A stretch of 64,000 nt of DNA from Roseibacillus sp. (lineage in GTDB: Bacteria > Verrucomicrobiota > Verrucomicrobiia > Verrucomicrobiales > Akkermansiaceae). The position numbers were made by a program, and so were the translations under genes. Positions 3,416 through 52,479 of the stretch are shown here, one piece after another (positions within the stretch are counted from its first letter, which is position 1; each line of letters starts with the position of its first letter). The stretch covers positions 96,001 through 160,000 of the forward strand of contig CBDEUM010000013.1 in NCBI GenBank assembly GCA_965242925.1. Reading direction: 5' to 3'. The notes beneath the pieces were generated by a model that ran no database searches, was not told the DNA's origin, and saw only the letters and a list, made by a program, of their open reading frames with translations.

Positions 3416-3551
3416 CAGGAGGATCCGATACAGCCCCCCACGCACCCCCGGCCTGCCAGCCCGTTCCTAAGCCTTGAAGAAAAGGAAAAATCTGTCAGTC
3501 TCTCCTTGGAAATCCCAGTCAGGTTCTTCTGAAGGATTCTAAGCTTCTATC

Positions 3552-9424: not shown

Positions 9425-9429
9425 GTCCC

Positions 9430-10017
9430 CTATCCTTTCGCTCCCTCTACCCCCGCACGCCGCAGGGAATCAGCGAGGTCCTTCAAAGTGTAATGCAGCC
9501 GGTAACCCACGTTCCCGACACTCATGCCACTGCGCTGGCTGATCTGCTTGTAATTGAGTCCTTCGAAATACTTGAGCCGGAGGAGGAGCTGGTCGCGCTC
9601 GTCGAGGTCTCCCATGAGCATGTGCAGGATCCCAGCTGCCTCCATCTTACCGAGCACATCGTCAGAGGCCTCCCGTCCCATGTCCTTCCGGCCCGCACCC
9701 ATGCCGCCATCTCCGCCCGGATTGGTCGCATCCCCGTCCCCGATGCTCTCCTGGGTGGCAGGATCGGCAAGCGTCTCGCGTTTGTTGTCGCGAATATGGT
9801 TGTAGGCCCTGTTCCTTACACAGCGAAACAGCCAGGCGCGCGGTTGCCGGACCTCGTCCCAGTGCTGATGGAGACGCAGGAAGGCGTCCTGCACCAGGTC
9901 CTCGGCAACTTCCCGGCGTCCCACCAGGCCAAACGCGTAGCGCAGAAGCGGGGTCTCCTCCGCTTCGAATACCATTTCAAGGGAAGGCTTGGGCGCCTTG
10001 GGGGGCTCAGGGGACAT
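9430..10017 (-). CDS. ECF RNA polymerase sigma-70 factor
   Basis: AEDLVQDAFLRL, AWLFRCVRNRAYNHIRD; region 4 LKYFEGLNYKQIS...SVGNVGYRLH. Confidence 0.92.
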   Translation of the reverse strand: MSPEPPKAPKPSLEMVFEAEETPLLRYAFGLVGRREVAEDLVQDAFLRLHQHWDEVRQPRAWLFRCVRNRAYNHIRDNKRETLADPATQESIGDGDATNPGGDGGMGAGRKDMGREASDDVLGKMEAAGILHMLMGDLDERDQLLLRLKYFEGLNYKQISQRSGMSVGNVGYRLHYTLKDLADSLRRAGVEGAKG

Positions 10018-10324
10018 GGGAACCACGATGGCCACGACCACAGCCATCGACGGGAAGCATTGTAGACCTGAAACTGCCACCTGATTCCATCCTTTCTAGC
10101 CTTAAGACACTCCAAATGGACAAGCCTTGGAAAATTCCGGTCATTTTTGCCATCATTATGATCCCCAAGGCCGCAAAAAGGCCTTTCCGGAAGAACGTCC
10201 GACGGCCTGGGGGCCTGAAACAAACTCTCCCACGATGCTGAAAACAGCAGTGAATCCACGTATTCACCGGCACAAGACCCTCGACCTCCGGGCATTCCCA
10301 ACCTAAACAAATCGGCCCCCGCAG

Positions 10325-11965
10325 ATGTACTTCCTCAAGAAAATCTTTCAGCTCCGGGATAAAACCAATCCCAGCGCCGAGAAGCCGTTCCTCGACCACC
10401 TCGAGGATCTGCGGAAATGCATTACGCGTGTCGTTCTCACCCTGCTCCTTTCCACGGTGGTCTGCTTCATCTTCCGCAATGAGCTCATGGACATCATCCG
10501 GCGACCGGTTACCCAGGTTTGGGAAGAGGGACAGGAGAGTGCCTTGAAGGACACCGGGATTCTCCTCCAGGACTGGGAGAATGCCAAGAGCATCGCGGAA
10601 GGCTTTAATGAGCTGCGGCCCGAGGACCGCACCCACTACCTTGAAAATTACGAGAATCCCGAGGAGATCCTCAACAATATCCGGACCGTCAACCTCTTTC
10701 GTGCCGCCCTCACCTTCGAGAATGAGACGGAGCAACGGGAATTCATCGAATCGCACAGCGGCCTCGACGAGGCCTTGAGGAACAAGATCCTCGCCCTGAT
10801 AGAAGGCGAACCCAATCCCAAGTCCGACGCACGCGGTAAACTGGTCCTCATGCAGGCCCTCAAACCCACCGAAGGCTTCATGCTCTCCATCAAGCTCGCG
10901 TTCTTCGCGGGCATCGTGGTCTCCTTCCCCTTCCTGCTCTTCTTCATTCTGCAGTTTGTCCTGCCGGGCATGCATCAAACCGAGCGCAAGGCCCTCTGGC
11001 CCGCAATGGCCATCGGCTTCGGCCTCTTCCTCTCCGGGGTCTGCTTCTCCTACTACATCGTCCTGCCCAAGGTCCTTGAGTTCTTCCACGATTACAGCTC
11101 GGACATGGCGATCGAGAACGAGTGGCGCATCGGTTACTACATTTCTTTTGCCACCCAGTTCACCCTTATCTTCGGACTCAGCTTCGAACTCCCCGTTCTG
11201 GTCATGACCCTGGTAAAGCTGGGCATCCTCAACTGCGAAATGATGCGCCGCACCCGGGCCTACGCCATTCTGGCCATCTTCGTCATTGCCGCCCTCATCA
11301 CTCCCACCCCGGACGCCTTTACCCTCTGCCTCCTCGCAGGTCCCATGGTGATACTCTACGAGATCTGCATCTGGCTGGCCTACTTCCTGGAACGCAAGAC
11401 CTCCCGCCTTGAGGCTGAGGAAGAGAAAGAACGCATGGAACGCCTCCTTGAGATCAGGAAGCGCAAGGAGGAACTCGGCATTACAGACGAGGACGATGGA
11501 GACGATGACGACGATCCCCATGACCCCCACGAACCGGATGACCCCCACGAACCGGACGAGGGCAATGATCAGGGATTCAGCGGGGACGGTGAGAACGAAC
11601 ACGATCCCTATCACGACGAGCACGGCCACGGGACCGAGCACGACCATGAGGCGGAGGACTACCACTATCATACGGACGACGACTCCTTCCGTGCGGACCA
11701 GCATGAGGAAGGAGATCTCGGCTTCGGGGACGACGGCCACACCGGCGAGGAACCGGAGGATCAATCCGGGGAGAGCGACTCCCCGCCTGCTCACGACCGG
11801 GAGCAGCAGGGCTTCGACTTCCACGAAGAGGTCGACCCGGCCGACACCGGGGAGGAGCGGGAGAAAGAAGAGGAACATCTCGATCCCCAGCATCCCCCCG
11901 AGGAGATTCCGGACGAAGAGAGATACCGCGAACGGGACGATCCGGATAATCGCGACCAGGATTAG
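10325..11965 (+). CDS. tatC: twin-arginine translocase subunit TatC with loop insertion and acidic His-rich tail
   Basis: PFLDHLEDLR, FVLPGMHQTERK, FGLSFELPV, AALITPTPD, LYEICIW. Confidence 0.95.
   Translation: MYFLKKIFQLRDKTNPSAEKPFLDHLEDLRKCITRVVLTLLLSTVVCFIFRNELMDIIRRPVTQVWEEGQESALKDTGILLQDWENAKSIAEGFNELRPEDRTHYLENYENPEEILNNIRTVNLFRAALTFENETEQREFIESHSGLDEALRNKILALIEGEPNPKSDARGKLVLMQALKPTEGFMLSIKLAFFAGIVVSFPFLLFFILQFVLPGMHQTERKALWPAMAIGFGLFLSGVCFSYYIVLPKVLEFFHDYSSDMAIENEWRIGYYISFATQFTLIFGLSFELPVLVMTLVKLGILNCEMMRRTRAYAILAIFVIAALITPTPDAFTLCLLAGPMVILYEICIWLAYFLERKTSRLEAEEEKERMERLLEIRKRKEELGITDEDDGDDDDDPHDPHEPDDPHEPDEGNDQGFSGDGENEHDPYHDEHGHGTEHDHEAEDYHYHTDDDSFRADQHEEGDLGFGDDGHTGEEPEDQSGESDSPPAHDREQQGFDFHEEVDPADTGEEREKEEEHLDPQHPPEEIPDEERYRERDDPDNRDQD
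11522..11557 (+). repeat. 18-bp tandem repeat encoding DPHEPD x2 in the TatC tail
   Basis: GACCCCCACGAACCGGAT / GACCCCCACGAACCGGAC. Confidence 0.85.
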
Positions 11966-12053
11966 GCCCGGGCGACAAGTGACCTTCCCCTCCCGGGATC
12001 CCCTTCCACCGCCTTCAATGGCCCACTGCGCTCTCGTTCCTCGAGAATCCAAA

Positions 12054-12130
12054 TGGTCGGGACGACTGGATTCGAACCAGCGACCTCCTCACCCCCAGTG
12101 AGGCGCGCTACCAAGCTGCGCCACGTCCCG
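12054..12130 (-). tRNA. tRNA-Pro (anticodon GGG)
   Basis: CGGGACG acceptor stem, TGGCGCAGCTTGGTAGCGC D arm, CCTCA-CTGGGGG-TGAGG anticodon arm, GGTTCGAATCC T loop, encoded CCA. Confidence 0.97.
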
Positions 12131-12231
12131 ATGTTGGCTAATTTGGATGGGGCCAAGAGCCGCGCGCTGTGTAACCTGCCGCATTCGGCATTGGCAAGCC
12201 GCGATTTTCCTGCCATGTCCACCCGTTCATC

Positions 12232-13269
12232 ATGGAAGCCACCAAGGTCGCCATCCTGGGCGGAAGCGGCTATACCGGAATGGAGCTCGTCAGGCTCCTT
12301 CTGGGCCATCCCGCAGCGCAGATCACCGCCGCCACGTCCCGCAGCAATGCCGGAAGACGGATCGAGGAGGTATTCCCCAGGTTTTCCCAACTCCCAGGCA
12401 GCCAACTTCCCTTCATCGAACCCGATATGGAGGCGGTGGTGGCGAGCGGTGCTACTATTGCCTTTCTTGCCCTCCCTCATGGAGCAGCTGCGCAATATGC
12501 CACCGAATTGCTCGAAAAGGGCCTGCGCGTGATCGACCTGAGCGCCGACTTCAGACTGCGTGAAGCAGCCACATACGAGGACTTTTACGGCGAAACGCAC
12601 CCGGCGCCGGACCTCCTCACAACGGCGGTCTACGGACTGCCCGAAGTCCATGGGGAGGCCATTGCCGCCGCCCGTCTGGTGGCTTCTCCCGGTTGCTATC
12701 CCACCTCCATCCTGCTCCCCCTCATCCCGCTCCTGCGCGAGGGGTTGATTGACCCCGCCACCATCGTGGCGAACTCCCTGAGCGGAGTGAGCGGTGCCGG
12801 ACGCAAGTCCGACCTCGCCCTCCTTTTCGTGGAGTGCAACGAAAGCATGCGCGCCTACGGCCTTCCCAGGCACCGCCACCTGTCCGAAATCGAACAGGAG
12901 CTTTCCGCCGCCGCCCGAAAGAGCGTCACCATCACCTTCGTCCCCCATCTCATCCCTGTGAACAACGGGATCTGCACCACCACCACCGCGATGCTGCAGG
13001 GAGACCTCGCAAGCGTGGAACACGCCCTCCGTTCCACTTATGAAAACAGTTCTTTCGTTCGCTTGCTCGGAACAGGGGCCTGCCCTGATACTAAGAATGT
13101 GACCCACACGAACTTCATCGACATCGGCTGGCAACACGATGAACGCACTGGCCGGCTTCTCTTGCTGAGTGCGGAAGACAACCTTGGAAAGGGAGCGGCG
13201 GGTCAGGCCGTGCAAAGTTTTAATATCATGACCGGATTGCCGGATATGACGGGCCTGGGAACAGTTTAA
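12232..13269 (+). CDS. argC: N-acetyl-gamma-glutamyl-phosphate reductase
   Basis: GGSGYTGMEL, LALPHG, DLSADFRL, PGCYPT, SGVSGAGRK, DNLGKGAAGQA. Confidence 0.97.
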   Translation: MEATKVAILGGSGYTGMELVRLLLGHPAAQITAATSRSNAGRRIEEVFPRFSQLPGSQLPFIEPDMEAVVASGATIAFLALPHGAAAQYATELLEKGLRVIDLSADFRLREAATYEDFYGETHPAPDLLTTAVYGLPEVHGEAIAAARLVASPGCYPTSILLPLIPLLREGLIDPATIVANSLSGVSGAGRKSDLALLFVECNESMRAYGLPRHRHLSEIEQELSAAARKSVTITFVPHLIPVNNGICTTTTAMLQGDLASVEHALRSTYENSSFVRLLGTGACPDTKNVTHTNFIDIGWQHDERTGRLLLLSAEDNLGKGAAGQAVQSFNIMTGLPDMTGLGTV

Positions 13270-13287
13270 GGAGAAAGGAACGAACGG

Positions 13288-14532
13288 TTGGCGATAGCCT
13301 TCAAGAAAGTGAAAGGCGGCGTGTGCTCCCCGATCGGATTTTCGGGCGGCGCGGTAAGCTGCGGGATCAAGGATCCGGGAAATCCGCGCCTCGACCTCGC
13401 TCTCATTTACTCCAACCACCCCTGCGTCTCGGCCGGAACGTTCACCTCCAACCGGGTAAAGGCTGCACCGGTAAAGGTCACCCAGGCTCACCTCCGCACC
13501 CGTGAACTACGGGCCATCGTGGCCAACAGCGGCAACGCCAATGCCTGCACCGGGATCCCGGGGATTGAGGACGCCCGGACCATGGCCAAGGCGGTGGCCA
13601 CCACCCTGGACCTCCGGCAGCGCGAAGTGGGCGTATGCTCTACCGGAGTGATCGGCCTGCCGCTGCCAATGGACCGGATGAAGACGGGACTGGCCGGACT
13701 GGCCGATCACCTCAGCGCCAGGGGAGGCTCCGAGGTGGCCAGGGCCATCATGACGAGCGACACCACCGTGAAGGAGATCGCCATCAGCGCCACCGTGGGC
13801 GGAAGGAAGGTGCGCATCGGCGCCTGTGCCAAGGGGGCCGGCATGATCTGCCCGAGCATGGCCACCATGCTCTGCTTCGTCACCACGGATGCCAACATCA
13901 GCAAGGCCTGCCTGCAGAAGACTCTCCTGGAAGCGGTGGAGGGATCCTTCAACCGCATCTGTATCGACGGTGACATGAGCACCAACGACACGGTCCTGCT
14001 ACTGGCCAACGGACAATCCGGAGGCAAGCCCATCGCCCGTGGCAGCAAGGCCTGCCGCGAATTCAGCGAAGCCCTCCAGCATGTGCTCCTGGAACTTGCC
14101 AAGGCCTGCGTGCGCGACGGCGAACGCGTAAGCAAATTCGTCACCCTCGAAGTAGTCGGCGCATCCGTTTATCACGACGCCAAGAAGGTCGCGGAAGCGA
14201 TTGCCAAGTCAGCTCTCGTCAAGTCGTCCTGGAACGGCGACGACCCGAACTGGGGCCGCATCATCCACGCCATCGGTTACTCCAGGGCCCGCATCCGGGA
14301 AGAACTCATCGACATTTCCTATGATGGCAAACCGGCCTGCGAAGGTGGCCTGATGGCCAGGACTCCCATCAGGACCCTGCGGGACATTGCGGCCAAAAAC
14401 AGCTTCACCATCACGGTGAACCTCCATCTTGGCAAGGCCGACTATACCATCTATACCAGCGATATTTCCCCGGAGTACATCGATTTCAATCGCAGCGAGT
14501 ACTCTTACTGGAAGAATGCAGGAGTGGATTAG
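13288..14532 (+). CDS. argJ: bifunctional ornithine acetyltransferase / N-acetylglutamate synthase
   Basis: NSGNANACTG, STGVIG, AKGAGMICPSMATML, DGDMSTND, DPNWGRI; TTG start. Confidence 0.96.
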   Translation: MAIAFKKVKGGVCSPIGFSGGAVSCGIKDPGNPRLDLALIYSNHPCVSAGTFTSNRVKAAPVKVTQAHLRTRELRAIVANSGNANACTGIPGIEDARTMAKAVATTLDLRQREVGVCSTGVIGLPLPMDRMKTGLAGLADHLSARGGSEVARAIMTSDTTVKEIAISATVGGRKVRIGACAKGAGMICPSMATMLCFVTTDANISKACLQKTLLEAVEGSFNRICIDGDMSTNDTVLLLANGQSGGKPIARGSKACREFSEALQHVLLELAKACVRDGERVSKFVTLEVVGASVYHDAKKVAEAIAKSALVKSSWNGDDPNWGRIIHAIGYSRARIREELIDISYDGKPACEGGLMARTPIRTLRDIAAKNSFTITVNLHLGKADYTIYTSDISPEYIDFNRSEYSYWKNAGVD

Positions 14533-14577
14533 CACCCCATCTCCGGACGGATTTCGCTTCACTCGCCCGGGAGCCGG

Positions 14578-15387
14578 CTATGCTGGACGAACAGCACAGA
14601 ATCCATCCTTCCAGCTCACCCTGACCTCCACCCCGTAGCAGGCACTCAGTTGCTCCGGGGTGAGAATCTGGCGCTTCCTTCCATCGGCCAGGATCCGCCC
14701 CTTCTTCATCAGGACCACCCGGTCGATCTCGGGAGGAATTTCGCGCACATCGTGGGTGACGAGCATGACTCCCGTCCCGTTCCGCATGAGTGCGCGCACC
14801 ACCTCAATCAGATCCCAGGCCCCCGGAAGATCCAGGGAGGTGGTGGGCTCGTCGAAGATGAGCATCTCGGGTTCGTGCACGAGGGACCGGGCCAGGAGGA
14901 ACCGGCGGCGTTCACCGGAAGAGAGATCGCCATAGTCCCGCCACATCAGTTCGTGCACGCCCGCCGCCTTCATGGCCCTCCAGGCCCTGCGCTTCTCCGC
15001 CGCCGTGAACGTCTGGCCCCGCGTGATCCCGTAGGTCCCGTGCAATCCGGTGAGCACCACGTCGCTGGCCAGTTCGTCGTCGGCAAAGAGGCCATGCTGC
15101 TCCGGAGTGACCACCCCGATGTGCTCGCGCAGATCGTAAAGCGACCAGTAGTCCTCTCCGAAAAGCCGCGAACTGCCCTGGTCCGCAACAGGATGAATAT
15201 CCCCCGAGATCAGCGCCAGAAGCGTACTCTTGCCCGCACCGTTGGGGCCGAGGACAGCAACCTTCTCCCCGGTTTCGATCCGCAGGGACAGCCCGTCAAA
15301 AACCTTGTTGTCACCACGCCACACCGTGACGTTCTCCAACTCAAGCACAGGCGAACCCACCGCATGACCTCCTGCCCAGTTCACCAA
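14578..15387 (-). CDS. ABC ATP-binding protein (ModF-like / iron-complex type)
   Basis: GPNGAGKST, LSSGERRR, IFDEPT, VTHD. Confidence 0.9.
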   Translation of the reverse strand: MVNWAGGHAVGSPVLELENVTVWRGDNKVFDGLSLRIETGEKVAVLGPNGAGKSTLLALISGDIHPVADQGSSRLFGEDYWSLYDLREHIGVVTPEQHGLFADDELASDVVLTGLHGTYGITRGQTFTAAEKRRAWRAMKAAGVHELMWRDYGDLSSGERRRFLLARSLVHEPEMLIFDEPTTSLDLPGAWDLIEVVRALMRNGTGVMLVTHDVREIPPEIDRVVLMKKGRILADGRKRQILTPEQLSACYGVEVRVSWKDGFCAVRPA

Positions 15388-34508: not shown

Positions 34509-37500
34509 ATGGCGCAAGCAAGACGAAAGGGCATTCGGAACGAGTTATTCCGGCGTGCCATCCGAACCGCAGGTTCTGCCTTCCTCCTTACCATGATGGG
34601 CTGTTCGGACGATTCTGCTGAAAAACACCCACCAGACGAGGCGGATTCACCTGCCGCGGCAGAAAATACGCCCTTTACCTTCAAGGTCCAGAGCGACCGG
34701 GAGCGAGAGGAGCTCGCCCAGCGCGAAAAAGAGTTCGATCCCAGCAACGATGGCTGGGAGAGCGAGGCCTTCCATGGGGAGATCACCTCCCAGCTCAAGT
34801 TGCTGGCAGAATCCCTGTCGTTGGACGAGCCCCCCGGGATTCTCAGCCCGGATGCGGCCTCCTCGATCCTGCGACCCGCCAATCTGGTGCCTGTATTCCA
34901 GCGCCACGGCATGAATATCCTGCGTGCCCCCTCCCCGGCCGACTCTCCTGCCGGCCCCCTCGCGGATCAGCTGAAGGCCCTCGCTGCCTCTCTCCACCGC
35001 GAGGGAGCCGATGTCTCGGTCCGGTTCAAGCAATTCCGCGTCCGTCCCCCGGCAGAGGGTGGAGAGAGTCCCTCAAGCACCGTGCTCTACAAGGCCAGGG
35101 CCTCCAGCCCGTCCGGGGAACGCGTCCAGAACGCCACCTGGGGCATCGAGTGGGTCTACTCCCCTGCCACCTCCACCTACTTGATCAAGACCGTCCGCCC
35201 GAGCGACTTCGAGGAGATCGAGCTGCCGGCTTCTCCGGAGATCGCCACCACCGAGGACACCCATGCGCTCTTCCGGGACCGCACCGGTGATCTCATCGAT
35301 CGCCTCCCGCGGGGCGACTTCATTCACTGGGGTGCCAACGAACTCTCCGTCCGCGGCCTCTACCAGAATGGACGCGCCCTCATTGGACTCGCGGTAGCCG
35401 ACGCCAACGGGGACGGAATCGACGACGTCTTCGCTCCGCAATCCCGAGATCTTCCCAACCTGTTCTTCCTCTCCCAGCCCGATGGAAGTCTCCGGGAAGT
35501 GGCGGCCCGGTCAGGGCTCGACTGGCTGGACGAGACCACTGTCTCGCTCTTCGCCGACTTCGACAACGACGGCGACCAGGACCTCGTCGCGGCAACCCGC
35601 CAGCGTCTTGCCTTTCACGAGAATACCGATGGATCCGGCCTGAATTTCAAGCGGATCCTGGAGCTGCCCCAGAGCGACACCTCCTCCCTCGCAGCTGCCG
35701 ACTATGATGGCGACGGGCTCCTCGATCTTTTCGTGTGCAATTACCTGAGCAGCGTGGGGAATGAGGCGGTCACTCTCTCCGATGCGATCTACAACGCCCT
35801 CGATGGTGGTTCGAACCTGCTCTACCGCAATGAAGGTTCGCTGAAGTTTACCGACGTTACGGAAGCAGTGGGTATGCACGTGGATGCAACCCGGTTGAGC
35901 CTGGCGGCCTCCTGGGAAGATTTCGACAACGACGGGGATGTCGACCTCTACGTGGCCAACGACTTTGGACCGAACTGTCTCTACCGCAACGACAAGGGCA
36001 AGTTCACCCAGATCGCCAAGGAGGTGGGGGCGGACGATCCTTCCTTCGGAATGTCGATCACCTGGGGTGATATCAACCGTGACGGACTGATGGACGCCTG
36101 CATCTCCAACATGTTCTCCGCAGCCGGGAACCGCGTGACCGCCCAGCCCAAGTTCGAACAGGATCTCACCGAGGGACTGGATGCCAAGCGCATCGCCTAC
36201 CTCGCACGTGGCAACACCCTCCTCGTCAACCAGGGTGGAAAACTCTTCCAGGAACGCAGTGCCCAGGCCGGTGTGGTCAACACCCAGTGGACCTGGGGAA
36301 CGCTTTTCGGCGACTTCGACAACAGTGGCGATCTCGACATGATGGCCATGAACGGCTACATCACCGGACCGGTGGTCGATGACTTGTGAAGTTTTTACTG
36401 GCGGCAGGTCCTGCCGGAATCAGGAACAAAGAGTCCCTCGCGCGATCAACTTGAAATCTACCTGCGGGAGGGGCGTTCCCTCAGCGGCCGGGAGCGCAAC
36501 GCCCTCTTCTTCAATACCGGCACCGGAAACAGACGCTTTGCGGACGTGTCATCGATCTCCGGGATCGACCAGGACGGCGATGGGCGCGGCCTCTGCCTCA
36601 CGGACTGGGATGCCGACGGCGACCTCGACGCCTGGGTAAGCAACCGGACGGCCCCCACCATACAGGTCTTCGAAAACCGCTGGGGTTCCCAGGCGGGAGA
36701 TTTCATCGCCCTCAACCTGCAGGGCACCAAGGCTAACCGCGATGCCGCCGGGGCACGCGTGACACTGCTGCTCAAGGGACAGGAACAGGCCCCTCTCACC
36801 CGCACCGTGCATCTCGGGGAAGGGTTCCAGAGCCAGTCCTCCAAGCGCCTGCACTTCGGCCTTGGAAAGAACGCCACGATTTCCTCCGTGACCGTGCGCT
36901 GGCCGGGACCGTCCCATGCCACCGAGACGTTCTCAGGCGTGGAGATCAACAAATTCCACCTCCTGGTGGAGGGCTCCGGCCAGGCCAGGGTCCTGCAACC
37001 CCGGGGAGCCAAGTTCGTGACTCCCGAGAATGCGGTTGTGAAGCCGGAGGAACGGATCAAAAGGCCGGAGAGCAGCAACAGCATCCTGCTCCCCACCCGT
37101 CAGCTCTTCCCCAAACTCCACTATCGTGATCTTGCCACCGGCAAGACCATGATCGGAGCCACTTCCGGCAAACCCACCCTCCTTCTTCTCTGGCACCCGT
37201 CCTGCGCCATGTGTTTCGAGGAACTGTCCATGTTCACCGGGGAAGCCGACAAGATTCGCCGCCTCGGCATTGAGATCCTGGCCACCACGGCCGAACCGGC
37301 GGAGGATGAGGATCCCGATGATGCCGCCAGCATCATCTCCAAGACCGGCTTCCCCTTCACCGTCGGCTTCACCGCCGGGGAAGTGGTCGAACGCATGCTG
37401 GTACTTCACCGTCACCTCTTCTACAGTCCCTACCATCTGAGTGTCCCCACCTCCTTTCTCCTCGACAAGGATGGGCGCATGGCTGCGATCTACCGGGGTG

Positions 37501-38276
37501 CAATCGATCTCAAAGAGTTAGAGGAGCACCTCAAGGCTCTCGCCATCCCCGACAAAGAACTCCTCTCCCGGATCCGCCCCTTCGAGGGTAGCCGGTTCGA
37601 ACCAGCCATGGGGCCGCGGCCCTCGGTCCTCATTAAGACTTACGTCGAAAACCAGATGCCCGACGAAGCCGAGCGCGTCTTCATCGCAAGCATCGAGAAC
37701 GAGTCGATCAGGGACCAGAGCAATGAGATCATGGCCACCCTGGGGCAGAGTTACTTCCTGCAGAAAAAGTTTGCCGAGGCCAAGCCGCTCTTCGAGCAGG
37801 TGGTGAAGCGTGATCCCAGGGACGCCAAGTCCCGTAACACCCTCGCCGCCATCTGCCTGAAGGACGGAAACATGGTCGAGGCCAAGCGTCTGTGGCGGGA
37901 GGCCTCTGACCTCGAGGAGGATTTCTCAGCTCCCCGTTTCAATCTCGGCAAGCAACTCATGAAGGAGCAGCGGACTGCGGAGGCCATGATCCTCTTCCTC
38001 GAATACTGGGTCCTCGAGCCCGATTCCCCGGACGCCCACAATTACCTCTCCATGGGCTACCTCCGTGGTCGTGAGTTCGCCAAGGCCGAGATGCACCTCA
38101 AGCGCCTCATCGAACTGCGCCCCGACGATGGCATCGCCTACACCAACCTGGCCAAGGTCTACCTCGCCCTCCGCAATGTCGCCGCCGCCCGGGACATCAT
38201 CACCCGCGGGCTCCAGATCGAGGGGATCGACCCGCGCAGTCGGCAGGCCCTCCAGCAGTTGAGCGAACGTCTGTGA
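34509..38276 (+). CDS. FG-GAP + ASPIC/UnbV + thioredoxin-like (CxxC) + TPR protein; in-frame TGA at 36387 (candidate Sec627), 1255 aa if read through
   Basis: ORFs 34509-36389 and 36546-38276 share a frame with no other stop between them: DDL*SFYWRQV...GRSLSGRERNALFFN. Also DxDxDGDxD repeats, GEGFQSQS, WHPSCAMC and TPRs. Confidence 0.8.
36390..36426 (+). promoter_or_regulatory. putative SECIS element
   Basis: CGGCAG-GTC-CTGCCG stem-loop (36402-36416) on a CTGG/TCAG lower stem; GGT apex 17 nt after the TGA. Confidence 0.7.
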
Positions 38277-38334: not shown

Positions 38335-38584
38335 TTTCCGGGGCGCGGGTTCACAGCTTCATGCCGGAGAGATTGATCCCGCTCTGTTCCCACCAGCGGA
38401 TGTCATCCGCTCAGGCTGACACTTCCATCAGATGGAATATCAAACGATACGATATTCAATTCCATTGAACCCTTTTAAAGTAATTCATACATACTACCGG
38501 AATCTAGGTTGTTCGCTGGTTCCCAATCCCCCACCGGGAATCCCAGCAGCACAAAAACTCCAATCAAAACCCACCCACATCTCT

Positions 38585-41500
38585 ATGAAGCTGCACCTTC
38601 GCTTATTCCCCACGCTGCTCTGTGCGGCCCTTATCTCTCCGCTTCTGCTCGCGCAGCACACCCCCGAGAGTCTTCTCCTCCGCCGCACGGACGGTCTCAA
38701 CGTCGGCGGCGACGACTTCACCGGCGCCCTGCCCGAGAACGCCGACCAGGCTGCTCCCTTCGGCGAACTGGACGATCCCAATTCCAGTCTCATTACCGCC
38801 CTTGATGTCGACCTCGAACCCGGAAACGGGGGCATCGATCTCCTTGGTGACAACTACGATCTCGCCTTCATCTTCCAGCTCTACGATGCCGACGGCGTCT
38901 TCGCCTTCACCGAGAACTTCGACGACCGCGTCTTCTCCTTCACCGAAAACTCAAGATCGTGGCTACTCCGATCGGCGGCTCTGACAACCTGACCGCCACC
39001 GGGGCACCCCTCCAGCACAGCGATCTGGGCTGGGACACCCGCACCTACGCCAACTTCGACTTTTCTGCCGAGGGCGGCGGCGGCTGGTTCAACGTTGATA
39101 TCTGGCTCACCGAGGACGGGGGCGGTGCCCAGTCCGCCGCTGACATCGGCTTCGGTTACTTCAATGGCACTTCTTCCAACACCGCCGACTTCGGCGGCAT
39201 CGGATATGCCAGCACCTTGGGAATCAGCAGCGGGGCTCCCGCGGTCTTTGACACCGACGCCAACGGCCAGAGCTGGGGCGCTTACCTCGCCGGCTTCGAT
39301 CCCAATCTCGACAGCGACGGCGATAGCATCCCTGACGGCTACGAGTTGCAGTATTTCCCCGGGGACCTGAGCCAGCTTGGACCCGGCGACTTCGACGGCG
39401 ATGGAGTGAGCGATCCCGACGAGTACATCGACGGGACCGATCCCACTGTAGCGGACGCCGACAATGACGGCTCCAACGACGGCCAGGAAAAGGCTGCCGG
39501 CACCGATCCCTCCGATCCCGACAGCGACGGCGACGGCCTGCTTGACGGGGCGGAAACTGGCACCGGTGTATTCGTTGACGCCAACAACACCGGCACCGAT
39601 CCGCTCGATTTCGACAGTGACGACGATTCGATCGGAGACGGGACCGAGGTTGCTGCCGGATTCGATCCCAATGACCCTGCCTCCCATCCGAACGTAAGCA
39701 CAGCCAACCACAGATCGGAAAGGGTTCTCTACCGCCGGACGGACAACCTCCCCGGAGCGGACTTCACCGGGGCCCTGCCAGAGAACATTGACCAGGCCGC
39801 CCCCTTCGGAGAACCGGAGGACCCGGACTCTTTCCTCCTCGAGGCGATCAATGTGGACCAGGAGCCAGGGAGTGGGGGCGTTGACCTCACCGGCGACAAC
39901 CACGACCTCGCCTTCATCTTCCAGCTCTATGACGCCGACGGCGTCTTTGCCTTCACCGAGAATTATGACGACCGCGTCAAGATCGTGACCACCCCGATTA
40001 GCAGTTCCACCAACCTCGAAGCCAGCGGAGCAGCGGTCCAGCACACCGATGTGGGCTGGAACACCCGCAGTTTCGCCAACTTCGACTTCGGGGAAGGGGG
40101 CTGGTTCAACGTCGATATCTGGTTCAGCGAGGACGGAGGCGGCGCCCAGTCCGCGGCCGACATCGGCTTCGGCTACTACAACGACTCCTCGACCAATACC
40201 ACCGACTTCGGCGGCATCGGCTATGCCAGCACCTTCGGAGTAAGCAGCGGGGCCCCCGCGGCCTTTGACACCGACGGCAATGGCCAGAGCTGGGGTGTCT
40301 ACCTCGACAGCTTTGATCCCGAAATCGACACCGACGGCGACAGCATCCCCGACGGGTACGAGTTACAGTTGTTCCCCGGGGACCTGACCCAACTCGGATC
40401 CGGCGACTTCGATGGCGACGGGCTCAACGACCTGGAGGAATACAGTGGAGGGACCGATCCCACCGACACCGACACCGATGGTGACGGCCTGCTGGACAAC
40501 GTGGAAACCGGGAGCGGCACCTTTGTGGACTCCAACGACACCGGCACCGATCCTCGCTATGCCGACACCGATGGAGACGGCCTGAGCGACGGTGCGGAGA
40601 GCAACAGCGGCACTTTCGTCGATGCCAACGACACCGGCACGAATCCTCTGGAGACGGATTCCGACAGCGACGGCTGCCCTGACGGCGTGGAAGTTGCCCT
40701 GGGCGGGGATCGGGATCCCAACGGCGCGGACGGCCCGGGAGCCAATTCCACCTCCTATGTGCAGCCCTTCGACGGCTTCCCCAACGGTACCACCGACCTG
40801 TGCGATGGCAGCCAGATCGGAAGCAACAACGGCCCGGCCTCCATCCAGAATGACCAGCTCCGCCTGTCCCAGGATGGGACTGGAAGCACTCACTCGTCAT
40901 TCCGGATCCCGGCCCTCAACGGCTCCGCTGACGCCTGGACCATGACCTTCGACTACACCATCACCGCCGGTGGGGACCCGGCAGATGGCTTCGCCATTTC
41001 CTACGGGGCCATCCCCCCACTCACCAACCCCACCGGGGCCGCCACTGACGATGCCAACGGCGCGGGCGAGGAAGCCTGGAGCACCGCCATCCCGTGGCTC
41101 TCGGTGGAGGTCGATACCTATGACAACGGAGCAGGAGAAGGGGGCGTCAATGTGGCAACCAACACCACCGCCCACCCGGATCTGACCTTCATCCCCGGTC
41201 GGCCCATTGCCAGCGGAGAAACGCGAACCGGGACCGTGACGATCGCCTGGGACGGCAATGCCGGAACCCTCAGCGCCAACATCACCGGCCTGGTCAACCC
41301 GGTTGAGATCGTGGACCTGTCCATTCCGGACTTCACCGCCGACGACTCCTACATCTGGGCCATCAATGCCCGGACCGGGGGAGCGCACGAAACCGTCCTG
41401 ATCGACAACATGTCCGTCTCCACCACCACCACTGACGTCCACAACTTCGTGGTCTCCAATGATGACAGCGGGGCTAACCTCGACTTTGAGTGGAACAGCT

Positions 41501-42183
41501 TCGCTTCCGAAGTCTACACCGTGGTGAGCTCCACCGATCCGGCAGCGGACGGCCCACCCGAGACCTGGACCCCCGTGGCCGGACTGCAGAACCTGGGTGC
41601 CACCGTGCCGTCCAACACACACAGCATCCCGAATCCAGGCGATCCGCTGCGTATCTACCGTCTCCTGGCCGGGCCGGTTCCGGCCCTCTTCTCCGACGAC
41701 TTCGAGTCGGGAGCCGGAGACTGGACCGCCCTGGTCAATGATCCCGGTGGCAACACCCAGTGGGAGTTGGGCGCCCCGGTCGGTTCCACCGGGCCGCTTA
41801 CTGGCGCGGAGGATTCCGCCACCGCCTGGTGCACCAACCTGGGCGATTACGGAACCGACTCCGACATTTCCCTTCGCTCACCTGCCATTGACCTGACTGG
41901 TGTGCCCGGAGCGGTCCTGAGCTTTGAGGCCTTCCGGGATGCGGATGGATTCGGCGACACTGCCGAGGTGCGCTTCCTACGCGCCGCCGACCAGGTGCCG
42001 CTCGGGGCATCCGTTGCCCTCGACATGACCGCCTTCGACTCCGACTTTGAAACGATCGAGATTCCGGTCGCCGCCGCAGCCATCGGGGAAACCGTCATCA
42101 TCGAGTTCAACTTCGTCAGTGACAGTAGCGCAGACGCCTTCAGCGGTCTCACCATTGACAACGTCAGCGTGAGTGCCAACTAG
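38585..42183 (+). CDS. large secreted protein (2 PA14-like domains, TSP3-like DxDxDG repeats, legume-lectin-like domain, C-terminal beta-sandwich), frameshifted by a 20-nt insertion at 38931-38950
   Basis: Signal peptide MKLHLRLFPTLLCAALISPLLLA; internal duplicated domain; ADGFAISYG...VEVDTYDN; FSDDFESG...SPAIDLTG. Confidence 0.8.
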
Positions 42184-45212: not shown

Positions 45213-48200
45213 TCACCGTGATTGGGCTATCGTCACAATGTTGTCCGTATCTGCCCTGACTTGGTGAGTCGACTCGCTCCCGTCCGGCCAGCGGACCGAA
45301 AGCTCCATATCCCTTCCGGGCCGTGCGAAGCACAGGAGGCCTCCCGAGCGGGTGGAATATCCCCCCCCAACCTGTTGCTCCCGCAATTGATGGCCCAGCC
45401 GGACCCTTGCACCAACCGCTTGCGGGTTGCCCTTGGTTCCCACCAGGCGCACCCTCAGCGGCAGCTTGCCGCCACGACGGAGGAAGGTCATCACGGGCTC
45501 CTCATTGATTCCGAAGACCAGATCCAAACGCCCGTCCGTATTGAGATCCACCACCGAAAGGCTCTTCCCGGCCCCGGGAACCTCGACTCCACTGGCAACA
45601 GGTGCAACAGGAGTAAACTGCCCCCCTCCGTCATTGAGCAGGACCTGGCCCAGGCCGCCGTCCATCCGCCCGGTCTCACGTTGGGGGCTGAAGGAATTCT
45701 GTGCCAGGACGGCGTCAAGGTCTCCGTCTCCATCGAGGTCCTCCAGCACCACACCGTAGGACGGTGCAATCTGTGCGATACGTGGCAGGGAACGCCACGT
45801 GAAGACGGCACTGCCGTCGTTGACCAGGATTCCACTCTCAAGGACATTTGCCTCCCGTCGCAGGGACTTTGACAGCCGGAGATCACTATAGATGTCATCC
45901 AGAACCGCACTGGCAAAGTTGTGGAAGGTCTCTAGTTTCACATCAAGAAAGGGCATCGCGTCGCGCGAACAACTGAAACCCCGCCGGGGAAGAAGGCGGC
46001 CTTCCGTATCATACTTGGCCTCCACGAGGTGGGACTTCCCACTTCCGTCGAGATCGCCGTAGTAGATCAACTCAGGGGATTCCGGGCTCGCCTTGTATTT
46101 TGAGTTCAGGCCGTTGTTGGTCACAAGGTAGTCGAGGTCGCCATCACCATCGATGTCTCCGCCTGCAATCCCGTTCCACCAACCCAGCCGGTCAGCGAGC
46201 TGGGACTCCGCGGTTCGATCGACGAGGACTCCCTCTTCGTTCCGAAAATAGCGCACCGGTCCCCACTCAACAGTAAGCAGAAGGTCACTCCAGCCATCAT
46301 CGTCAACATCCGACCAGAGGGCCCCGGTCACCATCCCGACCTCGTCCGCCCCGGGGAACTGCTCCGGGCCGGCCGGCACGAATGTTCCGTCCGTGTTGAT
46401 GAGCAGGTGACTCGGTGGAGCGAGGGGAAAGCTCCCCGGCACCACCCGCCCTCCAACGAAGAGATCAAGGTCACCGTCCCGGTCAAAGTCTCCCGCCGCC
46501 ACCGGCCCGGAACTGGTGCGAAAATCGGGAAGCGCTCCCTTCCCCGCGGGAGAAAGACCTCCCCGACCGTCGTTAAGATAGAGACGGTCACGATAGCTGA
46601 CGTGACCCTCCGCCTCTTCCACTCCACCACTCGCCACGAAAAGGTCCCGATCGCCGTCGCTGTCCGCGTCAAAGAACAGAGCTCCCAGGTCCTCCGCCCC
46701 GGCATCAGCAGCAAGCGCCTCCACTTCACCGACAGAGAACCGGCCATCACCCCCGTTGAAGTGAATCTGCCCTGGATATCCCCGGGATCCTCCGAGAAAG
46801 AAATCCTCATCCCCATCACCATCGAGATCGCCCCAGGCCACACAGGGACCCTGCTGTGAGAGTTTGTTGGGCAAGAGCGGCTGCCGGGAAAAATCGTCAA
46901 AAGGCTGCTCCCGGTGGATCGCGGTGGAAAGATGATCCGACCGCTCAAACAGGACCGGAAGAGCCGAATCAGCCGGGGGATCCGGCTGCCCGACCGGCTC
47001 GGTAATCAAGTGGTAATGATCAGCCTCGAGATCCGTGAGAAGCTGACGCGTCCCTCCGGGCCAGAGAATCTCGATCCTGTCAATGGTCCTCGCCGATCCC
47101 AACCCGAAGCAGGCGGCGGTATCACTGGCGGAGAGCCAGCCCCGCGCGGCGGTTACGAAGCGGGTCTGCTTACCCATCGCGGTTGTCACCGTAATAGTGG
47201 CTCCCAACCCGTCCCGGTTGCTTGCCCGGCCCATCAATTTGATCACCACACGATGAGTGTCGGCAACCCGGTTGCGATAGAGCGTGACCGGTTCCCCCGC
47301 ATTGCTGACGGCCAGATCCGGATCTCCATCACCATCAAAATCGGCACTGGCAGCACCGAAACTCACGCCAAGATGTTCCAGCCCCCACTCCGCACCGGCT
47401 GATTTGAACTTGAGATCTCCCAGGTTCCGGAAGGCCATGTTCTTTTCCTTCCGCAACGGTTTCTCAAGCCAGAACCTGGCATACTCGGGGGTCCCCGGCT
47501 GCAGGTTCTTCCTGGAATAATCGGAGAGGTCGCTGTTCATGTTGTCGCGCATTACCCCGTTGGTCACGTAGATATCAGCGCGCCCATCCTGGTCGTAGTC
47601 CTCAATACGCGGCGTCCACGTCCAGTCCGTGCTCGCCAGCCCGGCAAGGAAGGCGGCCTCCCGAAACCGTCCTGTGCCTGAGTTGAGGAGCAGCGCATTG
47701 CGCATGTACTGCCGTGGCTCGGGCCACTCAAGGAACCAACCCATGTCGTCCATGTTCCCCATCATCACCTTCTCCCGGTAATGCGAGCTCGCCGACATGT
47801 CGGAAGCGAAGAGATCAAGCAACCCGTCATTGTCGAGATCACCGACATCGCTTCCCATTGAGAACCAGGGCGTATGGGGCACTGCTTCCCTCGCGACATC
47901 CTCAAATGTGCCATCTCCACGGTTACGGTAGAGCATGTCAGGCCCCGTGAAATCGTTGGACACATAGAGGTCCGCGTCTCCATCGGCATCATAGTCAATC
48001 CAGGTAGAGGACAGCGTGAAGTAAGCACCCTTGATCCCCGCCACCCTGGAGACATCAACGAACTGCCCGCCGTCATTACGGAAGAGCCGATCACGCTGCC
48101 CCGCCTCCACACGCTGCGCCTTGTCCCCGGGCTTTATCAGGATTTCCCAGTACTCGCTCAGCTCGGGAATTACCACCGGGATTTCCTTTCCGTCACTCTC

Positions 48201-48911
48201 CCGGGGGACGAACTTCACCCTGAAGTCCGTTCCCGGTGGAGGTGCCACCGCAGTGGTCGCAAGGTAGCCGTCAAGATCGCCGTCATTATCAATATCCGTG
48301 AAGCTCATCATCATGCTCCCGCCATTGAAGTCGAGGCCCACCTCCGCGGCCCGGTCGACAAACCTTCCCGTGCCGTCATTTATGTAGAGCTTGTTGGGCC
48401 GGGTATAGCCACAGGCGTAGAGATCGAGATCTCCGTCATCGTCAATATCGACGAAACTCGCACCGGTTCCCCAGAAGCCCGGATCGGAGACCCCGGACGC
48501 CTTGGTCACATCTTCAAACTTAAATCCTCCCGTGTTTCGGTAGAGCCGGTTGCCCCCCGAGGGACTGGTAATGTAGAGATCCGGCAACCCGTCGCCATCA
48601 TAGTCACCCGCGCAGATCCCCCCGGAGGGATTGAGGAAGATGAACTCCTTGAGGACGCTGGCCGGGTCATCCCAATGCATGCCGTAGTCAATTCCCGTCC
48701 GCCCGGCCGGGAGCGCCTCAAAGAGGGCCTCCCCCTCGGCCCGGACCGCACGGACCGGGAGAGGTCGGGATTCGACGGTCCCTGGTGCCGGGGCCACCCC
48801 ACCGCGATCAGGATCCGGGCCGGCAGATGTTCCTGCCGGTTTGTCGCAACCCGCCACCACGAGCACCAGGGGTATCGCTGCACCAGCAAGCAGGTGGGAA
48901 ATCGGATTCAT
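45213..48911 (-). CDS. CRTAC1-like FG-GAP/ASPIC-UnbV lipoprotein with two beta-propeller sets
   Basis: Lipobox VVAGC, many DxDxDGDxD repeats, SMGSDVGD, STDWTW, NRDGLGA...RGWLSAS. Confidence 0.88.
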   Translation of the reverse strand: MNPISHLLAGAAIPLVLVVAGCDKPAGTSAGPDPDRGGVAPAPGTVESRPLPVRAVRAEGEALFEALPAGRTGIDYGMHWDDPASVLKEFIFLNPSGGICAGDYDGDGLPDLYITSPSGGNRLYRNTGGFKFEDVTKASGVSDPGFWGTGASFVDIDDDGDLDLYACGYTRPNKLYINDGTGRFVDRAAEVGLDFNGGSMMMSFTDIDNDGDLDGYLATTAVAPPPGTDFRVKFVPRESDGKEIPVVIPELSEYWEILIKPGDKAQRVEAGQRDRLFRNDGGQFVDVSRVAGIKGAYFTLSSTWIDYDADGDADLYVSNDFTGPDMLYRNRGDGTFEDVAREAVPHTPWFSMGSDVGDLDNDGLLDLFASDMSASSHYREKVMMGNMDDMGWFLEWPEPRQYMRNALLLNSGTGRFREAAFLAGLASTDWTWTPRIEDYDQDGRADIYVTNGVMRDNMNSDLSDYSRKNLQPGTPEYARFWLEKPLRKEKNMAFRNLGDLKFKSAGAEWGLEHLGVSFGAASADFDGDGDPDLAVSNAGEPVTLYRNRVADTHRVVIKLMGRASNRDGLGATITVTTAMGKQTRFVTAARGWLSASDTAACFGLGSARTIDRIEILWPGGTRQLLTDLEADHYHLITEPVGQPDPPADSALPVLFERSDHLSTAIHREQPFDDFSRQPLLPNKLSQQGPCVAWGDLDGDGDEDFFLGGSRGYPGQIHFNGGDGRFSVGEVEALAADAGAEDLGALFFDADSDGDRDLFVASGGVEEAEGHVSYRDRLYLNDGRGGLSPAGKGALPDFRTSSGPVAAGDFDRDGDLDLFVGGRVVPGSFPLAPPSHLLINTDGTFVPAGPEQFPGADEVGMVTGALWSDVDDDGWSDLLLTVEWGPVRYFRNEEGVLVDRTAESQLADRLGWWNGIAGGDIDGDGDLDYLVTNNGLNSKYKASPESPELIYYGDLDGSGKSHLVEAKYDTEGRLLPRRGFSCSRDAMPFLDVKLETFHNFASAVLDDIYSDLRLSKSLRREANVLESGILVNDGSAVFTWRSLPRIAQIAPSYGVVLEDLDGDGDLDAVLAQNSFSPQRETGRMDGGLGQVLLNDGGGQFTPVAPVASGVEVPGAGKSLSVVDLNTDGRLDLVFGINEEPVMTFLRRGGKLPLRVRLVGTKGNPQAVGARVRLGHQLREQQVGGGYSTRSGGLLCFARPGRDMELSVRWPDGSESTHQVRADTDNIVTIAQSR

Positions 48912-50028: not shown

Positions 50029-52479
50029 TCATGAACTTTCACTAATGTAATGTAGTTTTTGGGTCTCGAGATTCTCGAGCACCTGGATTTTCCCTGAAGG
50101 CCAGCGGATCGTGAGCCGATCCACTTGCTTGGCCGAACCCAGGCCAAAGTGAATGGAGTTACTGGCCTGGGAGCGGTAGGAATTCACCGGGAATTGATGT
50201 CGCACGATCAGGCGGCCCCCTGCCTCCGCCACCAGGCGGGCGCCGATCCCATGCCGGTTGCTGGTCGTCCCGCGCAAACGAACTGCAACCCAGTTTCCTG
50301 CTGGAAAACGGTTCTCGAATATAAGGACCGCACCTCCTCCCGTCTGGCGCACAATCAGTTCCTGCCGCCCATCTCCCTCAAGATCAGCGGCGACACAGGC
50401 CCGGGCATCTCCATCGCTGTCTGCGCCGGTCAGGTGACTGATCTCAAGGAAGCTCTCTCCTTCCATACTGAGAAAAGCCCGGTTCCTCTCATAGCTGCTC
50501 AGATTATTCTCCCAGTTGATCCTGAAGGGATCCTCCACCCAGAATTCTCCCAATGAAGGATCGGGAGCGCCAGGACAACTGGCAGTAGCTGAGCGGTTAA
50601 ATGGTTGTGACACGACAACCTGCCAGAGACAACTTCAGCCATCGGGCTTGCCCCGTTCCTGGCTGATGAATCCTGCGGTCGCGTAGAGGTCGAGCCAACC
50701 GTCATTGTTGAAGTCCGCCAGGCACGGTCCCCACGCCCATCCAACCGCGTTTACTCCCATCACGGTTCCAACCGGGGAGAATCGTTCTCCTTCCTGCCCG
50801 AGGTAGAGCTGGCTCCCATCAACCAGTCGTTCGAGTTTCCGGACCACCTGCCTGTCATATTCTCCCGGGGGAATATTGCCCATGACCCGCTGCCCGGCCT
50901 TGGAATACATTTCCCCGATATAAAGATCGGAGTAGCCATCGTTGTTGATGTCTCCCGCTGTCATTCCCATTGAACCAAAATCGGTTGGCGCCTCGTTCAG
51001 TTCCTTCCCCTGGAATTGTCCATTCGGACCATTGAGCAGCAGGATTCCATCTCCAAACTCGTCGATTACATAAAGGTCCGGCCTCAGGTCATCGTTTGCA
51101 TGGAACCAAACTGCGTTGCTGGTCGAACGCTGACCGCCATCGAGAGGCGCCCCATTGGTCGCATCCTCAAATTGCCAGCCCCCGACATTCCGCAGCAACT
51201 GGTTGTTGGCCAGCTTGCCTGCCTTGCCGTCAATCCAGGATCCCGATTTGAACCCGCCTCCTGCTCCCCGGGTGACATAGAGGTCGACCTTTCCATCGAG
51301 GTCGTAATCTGCCAGCGAAATCCCGGTGGGTTTCACCTGAGTTTTTTCCAGAACCTGCTCCCGGGTGCTGGTCTTGAATTCTTCCCGCGACATCCCGATC
51401 AGAAAGGAGGTCAGGTTGCTGCGCTCCGTGATGTCCTGAAAAAAACGACCGTTCAGATTACGGTAGAGGCGGTAGCCATCCGGATGGTGGGCAATGCCGT
51501 GGATGAGATCCTCCCAGCCGTCGCCATCCAGATCGACAAAAGCCGCAAAGCCCCCTCCCAGGTGACCACGTATGCCCAGGGCCTGCGTCCCTTCCCGAAA
51601 CAATCCCCGCGGCTGGCCGACGAAAAAGCGTGAACCCCGCATGTCGGTCACGAAGAGGTCATGGCGCCCATCGTTGTTGAAATCACAAAGGTAAACTCCG
51701 CCCGTGTTCATCACCCTCCGGTTACGGGGCTCCTTCCAGTTATCCCAGAAGAGAGCATTGTTGATTCCGCGCCCGGCAGCTACTTCGGTCATGAGAGGCT
51801 CCCTGGCATGCCCAAGCACCGCACGTGTCACATGCATGGAGACAAGCCACCCCGGGGTCGCCAGCCGCTCCTCGTTCAAGGCCGAGACTCCGAACTGAAA
51901 AAAGAGGGTGAGCTCTCCCCGTGATCCTGCCGGACCCTCCGCGAACACCTCGATCTTTCCAGTCCCGGACCAGGGTCCCCCGGGGTTGTCCCGCTCCTCC
52001 GGAGAGAGCGTGATGACATGAGTCCGCAACGTGAGATCGGCGCGCCCGCTCTGATCGAGTTCAGCCAATCTTCCCAGGATCCAGTCGGTAATCCCCTCCC
52101 GCTCGACACGCCGCGATTGACTGCTGCCAACCTCTTCGCGCACCGCAAGGATACCAGCTTGGAAGGATTGGCCTTTTCCGGCAGCTGGATGCAGTCCCTT
52201 GAACCCGGGAGCAAGGATATCAACCAACTTCTGGCGGTTCCGTGACTGCAAGGCTTCTGCAATCTGGGAAAACCCAATCTCCTTCAGGAGATTGGCACGA
52301 TGCTCGGCATCCCATATGTAACTCCGTCCCTCCTCACTGATGAGCCTGGGCGGATCGTCCGGCTCCCGGGCCACGCGATCGCTCTCATCCTTCTCGGAAC
52401 AGGAGCAAAGGAGCAGGGCCACCACCCAGCAGGGTGCTGCCCTTGCCGCGGGGAACTCCGTCATCGGTCCGGGCATCAC
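50029..52479 (-). CDS. FG-GAP + ASPIC/UnbV lipoprotein; in-frame TGA at 50637-50635 (candidate Sec615, U-x-C), 816 aa if read through
   Basis: ORFs 50635-52479 and 50029-50613 share a frame, joined by KPDG*SCLWQVV. Lipobox-like LLLCSC; NLSSYERNRAFL; NRHGIGARL...NSYRSQ...HFGLG. Confidence 0.78.
50603..50634 (-). promoter_or_regulatory. putative SECIS element
   Basis: After the TGA: AGTTGT-CTCT-GGCA-GGT-TGTC-GTGTC-ACAACC. Folds either with a GCAGGT apex or as GGTTGT-CGTGTC-ACAACC. Confidence 0.55.

Follow-up and report, generated by a model that had tools for sequence, protein, structure and literature searches.

The window considered here is a stretch of 64,000 nucleotides (nt) from contig CBDEUM010000013.1 (positions 96,001 to 160,000, forward strand) of Roseibacillus sp., a marine Akkermansiaceae metagenome-assembled genome (MAG) whose assembly (GCA_965242925.1) amounts to 4.58 Mb in 42 contigs and is 89.9% complete, with a contamination estimate of 3.18%. 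Two open reading frames (ORFs) lie on the + strand in one and the same frame, at 34509..36389 (626 aa, starting with ATG) and 36546..38276 (576 aa, starting with GTG), and the frame between them is broken solely by the TGA at 36387-36389. When this TGA is translated as selenocysteine (Sec, U), positions 34509-38276 give a continuous product of 1255 residues with Sec at position 627 (U627) and a terminal TGA; the translation contains the peptides DDL-U-SFYWRQV, GRSLSGRERNALFFNTG, TDWDADGDLD and SCAMC (residues 899-902). Judged by comparison with its relatives, this stretch is in all likelihood (probability about 0.9) one gene encoding an exported, CRTAC1-like FG-GAP/UnbV_ASPIC selenoprotein of 1255 residues, in which UGA is read as Sec.

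The TGA recurs at one aligned column in 13 genes of the source genome (G000), which are 30-47% identical to the target and share the motif D-L-[TGA]-S-x-x-W-R-x-V-V around it. A six-frame search of 41 related genomes returned matches in 26 and TGA forms in 23, namely G000 and 22 of its relatives. Among the matches listed, orthologues (71-99% identity) and site-covering paralogues (40-53%) carried exactly one TGA each, as did all site-covering matches at 39% identity or above, and the rows free of TGA were either paralogues at no more than 35% identity or partial matches ending before the site. For five genomes looked at in detail, one TGA was present in 42 of 62 rows (13, 12, 11, 5 and 1 per genome), the 20 TGA-free rows consisting of 9 that do not cover the site and 11 at 38% identity or less. 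Neither TAA nor TAG occurred at the Sec site among the homologue rows listed, and the reading frame was maintained across the TGA in every homologue examined. TGA forms were also present in a Phycisphaerae MAG, a Myxococcales MAG and metagenome contigs, two of the latter coming from a metagenome scan. In an even sample of 301 genomes of the phylum, the motif family was found in just 6 at E <= 1e-15; this sample added no informative non-TGA forms, and five of its loci (L052-L056) had no motif.

Although a single in-frame stop in a MAG is what a recent pseudogene or a mistake of sequencing or assembly would leave behind, the presence of the same TGA in 23 genomes and many independent metagenomes makes such an origin hardly credible. 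The window stretch is represented in many seawater and marine metagenome runs, and in 14 of these runs half or more of the sampled words were present. Parts of 35800-37000 are covered, patchily, by contigs from four RNA libraries, and two of these contigs (36332-36481 and 36342-36542) span the TGA with no change listed at 36387-36389, which likewise argues against an error. As a sign of expression these contigs give a weak hint, given that the libraries may contain DNA.

Between the 52 inter-ORF codons and those of five orthologues, synonymous changes outnumber non-synonymous ones (20 versus 10 and 21 versus 9, for example), a pattern resembling that of the flanking coding sequence, and the stretch aligns with unbroken homologues that have no TGA. 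We conclude from this codon comparison that the inter-ORF codons are under purifying selection and belong to the translated protein. In public gene calls the gene is divided at the TGA: the database protein P0035 (19 member sequences) ends …GFITGPVEDDL, exactly at the split point, and several "tetratricopeptide repeat proteins" of ~700 aa start just downstream of the TGA. These calls, together with the GTG start at 36546, speak for a true stop that separates a 626-aa FG-GAP protein from a separately initiated 576-aa UnbV/thioredoxin/TPR protein, an arrangement we regard as very improbable: the frame is kept in all homologues examined, the intervening codons evolve as coding sequence and can be aligned with unbroken homologues, a propeller would be divided by the split, and the stop is TGA in every case, with no TAA or TAG in the rows listed and a conserved hairpin in the TGA forms only.

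An earlier reading of the sequence, referred to below as the original prediction, had proposed much of this arrangement. Its single 1255-aa protein agrees with the continuous translation and the same-frame TGA in orthologues of 71-99% identity, and its candidate Sec at DDL-U-SFYWRQV with a TGA and hairpin conserved down to ~30% identity in paralogues and with the Sec machinery described below. It had also placed the TGA inside the propeller with TDWDADGDLD downstream, which is borne out by the peptides and by the Pfam FG-GAP matches; its count of 52 codons that read as protein is exact, and the split that it expected of standard annotation is seen in database proteins that end at ...DDL or begin just beyond it.

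Downstream of the TGA, bases c36402 to g36416 form a hairpin of 6 base pairs (bp) with the loop GUC; the hairpin starts 12 nt after the UGA and its apical loop is GGUC-like. The hairpin of the original prediction is real, and its loop begins 18 nt, not the claimed 17 nt, beyond the final base of the TGA. Minimum-free-energy (MFE) folding of the orthologues gives a further, outer helix at ~36391-36427. With the T of the TGA numbered as position 1, pairing was scored for pairs 15-31 through 20-26 in 36 distinct TGA forms, of which 24 pair at 6/6 positions and 11 at 5/6, the sole outlier (L041) pairing in a register shifted by 1 nt. In thirteen non-TGA homologues with the same encoded peptide, S-F-F-W-R-Q-V-V, the number of pairs is 2-5 and never 6/6. 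The loop reads GGTCG in 25 of the 36 TGA forms, and its Val codon is GTC in 28/36 TGA forms compared with 1/13 non-TGA forms. Furthermore, 92.6% of the cells of the 36-sequence alignment pair, a share that drops to 68.5% or less in controls with a slid 3' arm, and 13 cells have changes on both sides, a number matched by 0 of 500 shuffles. RNAalifold independently gives the inner four pairs of the helix. An Rfam scan of 36300-36520 returned chance-level matches only and no matching family. As a separate observation, L081, a non-TGA homologue from an Acidobacteriota MAG with N at the site, has an MFE fold with a different, 10-bp hairpin, UUGGCGGCAG-GUU-GUUGCCAAG, which may be chance or a relic.

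Decoding of the Escherichia coli fdhF type relies on SelB and a selenocysteine insertion sequence (SECIS) hairpin that lies within the ORF, just 3' of the UGA. The present gene resembles that system in having a stem-loop, with G and U in the apical loop, a short and constant distance beyond its UGA, and in that a SelB with SECIS-binding winged-helix domains, a tRNA-Sec and SelD are all encoded in G000. SelB of G000 has GTP_EFTU, Beta-barrel_SelB and two SelB winged-helix domains; the tRNA-Sec scores 59 bits in Rfam and is called SeC with anticodon tca by ARAGORN; and SelD is a selenoprotein too, its gene having a single in-frame TGA (…SSCAG-U-ASKLG; contig C14, L009:1471-2520, +). The present gene differs from fdhF in encoding an unrelated protein, in its short helix (6-bp core), in that most non-Sec homologues have residues other than Cys at the site, and in having no matching Rfam family. 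SelB with Sec-tRNA(Sec) would bind the hairpin after the UGA, and Sec would be inserted by the standard bacterial route; the codons of the conserved peptide W-R-Q-V-(V/L)-(S/A/P) themselves form the hairpin. The decoding mechanism is an ordinary bacterial one, in an uncatalogued, mis-split selenoprotein gene.

Across the 41 genomes, selA was found in 21 of the 23 with TGA forms versus 4 of the 18 without, a co-occurrence that is descriptive only, as the genomes are related and not independent. The two TGA-form genomes without selA are a 70%-complete genome and G000. G033, a genome of the same order that is complete in one contig, has only two TGA family genes, and these lie on either side of the Sec machinery: at locus L183 (G033:C1:4455000-4474999), the Sec form at 2336-5815 is followed in turn by a Laminin_G_3/TSP3 protein, a fusion of Pyr_redox_2 and SelD (8968-11244), SelB (11231-13162, -) and SelA (13175-14719, -), and the second Sec form lies ~10 kb beyond this first group (L184, G033:C1:4475000-4487000). 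Linkage of family genes with sel genes was not seen in the other genomes looked at.

The domains of the predicted protein (Table 1) follow the order of the CRTAC1 family, FG-GAP_3/FG-GAP and then UnbV_ASPIC, with all of these matches above the Pfam gathering scores, and NCBI names its relatives "CRTAC1 family protein". A scan of NCBIfam gave no specific family, just TPR and weak ResA matches. An alignment computed by a fast method from 28 full-length Sec and 22 non-Sec forms has Cys at the lipobox column in 20/28 Sec forms, and a simple lipobox pattern (a regular expression) matches 16/28 Sec forms versus 0/22 non-Sec forms. Export, as claimed in the original prediction, is plausible in view of the lipobox-like LLTMMG|C32 and its counterparts in 16/28 Sec forms, probably as a lipoprotein.

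Table 1. Features of the predicted selenoprotein gene, in window coordinates.
Feature	Position	Strand	Basis or detail
Whole gene, predicted 1255-residue FG-GAP / UnbV_ASPIC / thioredoxin-like / TPR selenoprotein	34509..38276	+	stop TGA 38274-38276
N-terminal signal with lipobox-like motif …SAFLLTMMG|C32	34509..34604	+	sequence-based prediction
FG-GAP beta-propeller region, ~residues 290-740, holding the Sec site	35376..36728	+	Pfam FG-GAP_3 124.1 bits, FG-GAP 44.9 bits
In-frame TGA, putative U627, motif DDL-U-SFYWRQV	36387..36389	+	comparison of homologues
Inter-ORF stretch, 52 codons, from the TGA to the first possible start, GTG 36546	36390..36545	+	codon comparison
SECIS-like hairpin core CGGCAG-GUC-CUGCCG	36402..36416	+	folding, register and covariation tests
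UnbV_ASPIC domain, residues 746-816	36744..36956	+	Pfam PF07593, 65.5 bits
ResA/TlpA-type thioredoxin-fold domain, residues 873-992	37125..37484	+	Pfam AhpC-TSA 27.9 bits (cut-off 26), Foldseek
CxxC of the thioredoxin-fold domain, C899-A-M-C902	37203-37214	+	sequence
C-terminal TPR repeats, residues 1066-1237	37704..38219	+	Pfam TPR_19, TPR_2, TPR_16, others

The redoxin-like CAMC motif of the original prediction is present as part of LWHPSCAMC, in which W-x-x-x precedes the CxxC as in the ResA/TlpA-type thioredoxin fold, and it lies within the AhpC-TSA match. A structural model of residues 540-1010 has a mean predicted local distance difference test score (pLDDT) of 68.5, with confident UnbV and thioredoxin parts, the block means of the latter being mostly 82-92 with dips to 60-76. 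Foldseek placed this model closest, among PDB entries, to murine CRTAC1 (cartilage acidic protein 1; 9etn), followed by ResA, StoA, TlpA and related extracytoplasmic thiol-disulfide reductases, with template modelling scores to ResA, StoA and TlpA of 0.65-0.77 when normalised to the target. The FG-GAP propeller and UnbV_ASPIC domain are shared with CRTAC1 (sequence E 2.1e-16, Foldseek E 7.7e-11), which by contrast is a non-selenoprotein that lacks thioredoxin and TPR parts; the segment holding the Sec motif (query residues 249-386) is left out of the HMMER alignment to 9etn. With ResA, TlpA and StoA the protein has in common a redox domain with a W-x-x-x-C-x-x-C motif and a matching model fold, although here this domain forms part of a 1255-aa protein and scores far below the NCBIfam ResA cut-off. 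Membership of ResA itself (NF002854) was rejected at 26.4 bits versus a cut-off of 170, and the resemblance is one of fold only.

In the same fast alignment, the two cysteines of the CxxC were kept in 28/28 and 27/28 Sec forms, compared with 3/22 and 12/22 non-Sec forms. A broader comparison of 63 distinct Sec forms revealed a complementary pattern close to the Sec residue. In the 45 forms with a CxxC 256-287 residues downstream, Cys was never found at U+2 (0/45). The domain-less set (n = 14, comprising 13 complete forms without a downstream CxxC and L146) contained U-S-C in 9 of its 14 members and C-D-L-U in one (L157); the remaining forms without CxxC include the L027 orthologue, whose ORF ends 208 residues after U, and L058, which has CxxS. 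The two states occur even within one subfamily of G000, where the contig-12 form reads U-S-N and has an AhpC-TSA domain with WCVAC, and the contig-34 form reads U-S-C and ends after UnbV_ASPIC. Both the retention of the CxxC and the U-x-C pattern fit a redox-active Sec. Sec would act as a redox-active residue on the propeller, the fused CxxC domain would resolve a selenenyl-sulfide or oxidised Sec and, like ResA/TlpA, draw electrons from a membrane reductant, and in paralogues without the thioredoxin domain the vicinal Cys (U-S-C) would take over the role of the CxxC. We give about even odds to a redox-active Sec that is resolved by the fused CxxC domain or, in the domain-less forms, by a vicinal Cys. 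That the CxxC domain could recycle the Sec had been part of the original prediction, and the support it has gained is comparative in kind, namely CxxC retention, U-x-C confined to domain-less forms and the ResA/TlpA match.

The residue found at the Sec site in relatives without TGA bears on whether Sec is catalytic. Database proteins with the motif had Cys at the site in 0/34 cases (S, A, G, E, D, Y, R, Q and M occurred), and genomic loci, mostly from Acidobacteriota, in 0/13 (N, S, A, G, D and E). An exhaustive profile search gave 42,707 matches at E <= 0.001, the best 150 of which were taken (146 of them new, and 42 of these new ones with the motif), and among these best 150 Cys stood at the site in 4 of the 42 motif proteins (P0183, P0199, P0212 and P0239), the other 38 having S, E, N, D, A, M or Q. 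Cys counterparts, as far as these searches go, thus probably exist but are rare. Of the points at this site to which the original prediction had looked, neither TAA nor TAG occurs in the homologue rows listed, and with Cys at 4/42, 0/34 and 0/13 a Cys counterpart is nearly missing. Because of the remaining evidence for Sec, we do not take this near-absence as a refutation.

The same tabulation lends something to the idea that Sec is inserted but non-catalytic, with the UGA and its SECIS serving mainly as a selenium-dependent gate: the full-length protein would arise only in the presence of Sec-tRNA, a truncated propeller being released otherwise. The site residue is highly variable in non-TGA homologues within an otherwise strongly conserved motif, with Cys rare, and the W-R-Q-V-V-S/A peptide is conserved with or without TGA and provides a ready-made near-hairpin, one non-TGA form pairing at 5/6 positions. 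We nevertheless consider such a gate improbable, since the complementarity of U-x-C and fused CxxC and the strict CxxC retention in Sec forms point to chemistry at Sec, the truncated product would be an incomplete propeller, and a TGA kept in 12-13 paralogues per genome would be costly for gating alone.

Several observations nonetheless weigh against a Sec-decoding, redox-active interpretation of this gene. The evidence for Sec decoding is comparative throughout. The hairpin of the target folded on its own is no better than chance (z = 0.69, with 148/200 shuffles folding equally well), for which reason its significance derives from the comparison of homologues alone. The covariation, in turn, comes mostly from one pair (AU 12, GU 11, GC 9, CG 2, UG 1), which joins the silent third base of an Arg codon with the first base of an S/A/P codon, and with related sequences and a short helix we grade the hairpin evidence as good, not overwhelming. 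Additionally, selA was not found in the G000 assembly by TIGR00474 or PF03841, the assembly being 89.9% complete; because selA scores above the cut-off in 18/19 other genomes of the genus, including G008 with an orthologue 99% identical to the target, this miss probably reflects incompleteness. The rarity of Cys is unusual for a Sec with a catalytic role and makes up the family's chief oddity, and the four Cys forms are unnamed singleton metagenome protein predictions, known at the protein level only; a metagenome scan for the contig of P0199 did not return it. As for the redox proposal, the 20 non-Sec forms with a decayed CxxC make up one clade in a quick tree (midpoint-rooted, from which we draw no direction of Sec gain or loss), and because of this single non-Sec clade the association of Sec with CxxC amounts to few evolutionary events. 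Two non-Sec proteins, P0011 (R at the site) and P0020 (Y), keep the CxxC, two domain-less Sec forms (L156 and L170) have no nearby Cys, and the Sec segment of the 540-1010 model has a pLDDT below 50 and is uninformative on the surroundings of Sec.

More tentatively, and at less than even odds, the family may represent a distinct extracytoplasmic type of selenoenzyme, with Sec on a propeller and serviced by a CxxC domain or a vicinal Cys. On such a view, the Sec site would lie outside the thioredoxin fold, at a position where relatives tolerate nearly any small or acidic residue, and the codons for W-R-Q-V-V-S/A would amount to a ready-made near-SECIS that could let Sec arise at a non-Cys site. 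The family would then be the main user of Sec among marine Verrucomicrobiota and would explain why they keep the trait, a suggestion made because of the 12-13 paralogues per genome and the sel genes that lie beside family members in one complete genome.

The domain family has been encountered before: Kim et al. (2016, PLoS One; PMC4807772) list it in Table S9 as selenoprotein candidates, each annotated as two genes split at the UGA, with bSECISearch positive for 3/4 candidates and an acidobacterium with Gly at the site as the closest non-Sec match. That Gly agrees with the non-Cys residues found here in Acidobacteriota homologues. As far as its main text and Table S9 go, the candidates appear in the supplementary table only, the words FG-GAP and UnbV being absent from the main text, and that account does not extend to the conserved motif, covariation in the hairpin, the complementary CxxC and U-x-C, the Verrucomicrobiota hosts or the 12-13 copies found per marine Akkermansiaceae genome. 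The catalogue of 119 prokaryotic selenoprotein families in Table 1 of Zhang et al. (2026, AEM; PMC13188914) has no FG-GAP, UnbV_ASPIC or CRTAC1 entry, and the text of that paper does not mention FG-GAP, ASPIC, VCBS, propeller or TPR. The deep-Sep paper (PMC12013277) contains no mention of FG-GAP, ASPIC, VCBS, Verrucomicrobi, Planctomycet or repeat, and literature searches on selenoproteins with FG-GAP, ASPIC, UnbV or CRTAC1 returned nothing relevant.

The family is unusual in its very few Cys homologues, in its Sec on a propeller and in its dozen copies per genome. As gene callers cut every family member in two, hundreds of large exported proteins of marine Verrucomicrobiota, Planctomycetota and others would be mis-annotated, and selenoproteomes understated by a dozen genes per genome. 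Sec would here occupy an unusual context, an exported propeller of the calcium-binding type found in the CRTAC1 family, which is absent from the latest catalogue of 119 families. The complementary occurrence of U-x-C and fused CxxC provides a concrete hypothesis for the chemistry of Sec, and the family suggests a demand for selenium in abundant marine heterotrophs.

The window holds two further members of the family. The first (50029-52479, -) has 817 residues with FG-GAP and UnbV_ASPIC but neither a thioredoxin nor a TPR part, and its in-frame TGA at 50635-50637 stands in the U-x-C motif PDG-U-S-C-LWQVVV and is followed by a hairpin of its own, GGUUGU-CGUGUC-ACAACC. The second (45213-48911, -) is a 1232-aa protein with FG-GAP_3 (272 bits) and UnbV_ASPIC that has neither a TGA nor an S-x-x-W-R motif, its aligned site reading …NSDL-S-DYSRKN. 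Adjoining pairs of family genes on opposite strands were present at L152, L167, L169 and L176 (in G003, G006, G002 and G008, respectively), one partner being a thioredoxin-less U-S-C form with 212-215 residues after U and the other a U-S-D form with a CAVC thioredoxin domain and 374 residues after U. Within G000, family genes on contigs C12/C17 and C28/C37 form pairs that are identical or near-identical around the TGA, one gene of each pair having a shorter open frame (706 and 708 aa); these may be recent duplicates or assembly redundancy.

The neighbouring genes in the window, the majority of which have no Pfam family, gave no functional clue. The Sec form is followed by a gene for a large protein with bacterial TSP3 repeats both in the window (38959-42183, +), where a 186-aa ORF (38432-38992) lies between the two, and in G033 (L183:5944-8904, +), and this gene may be a conserved neighbour of the Sec form.

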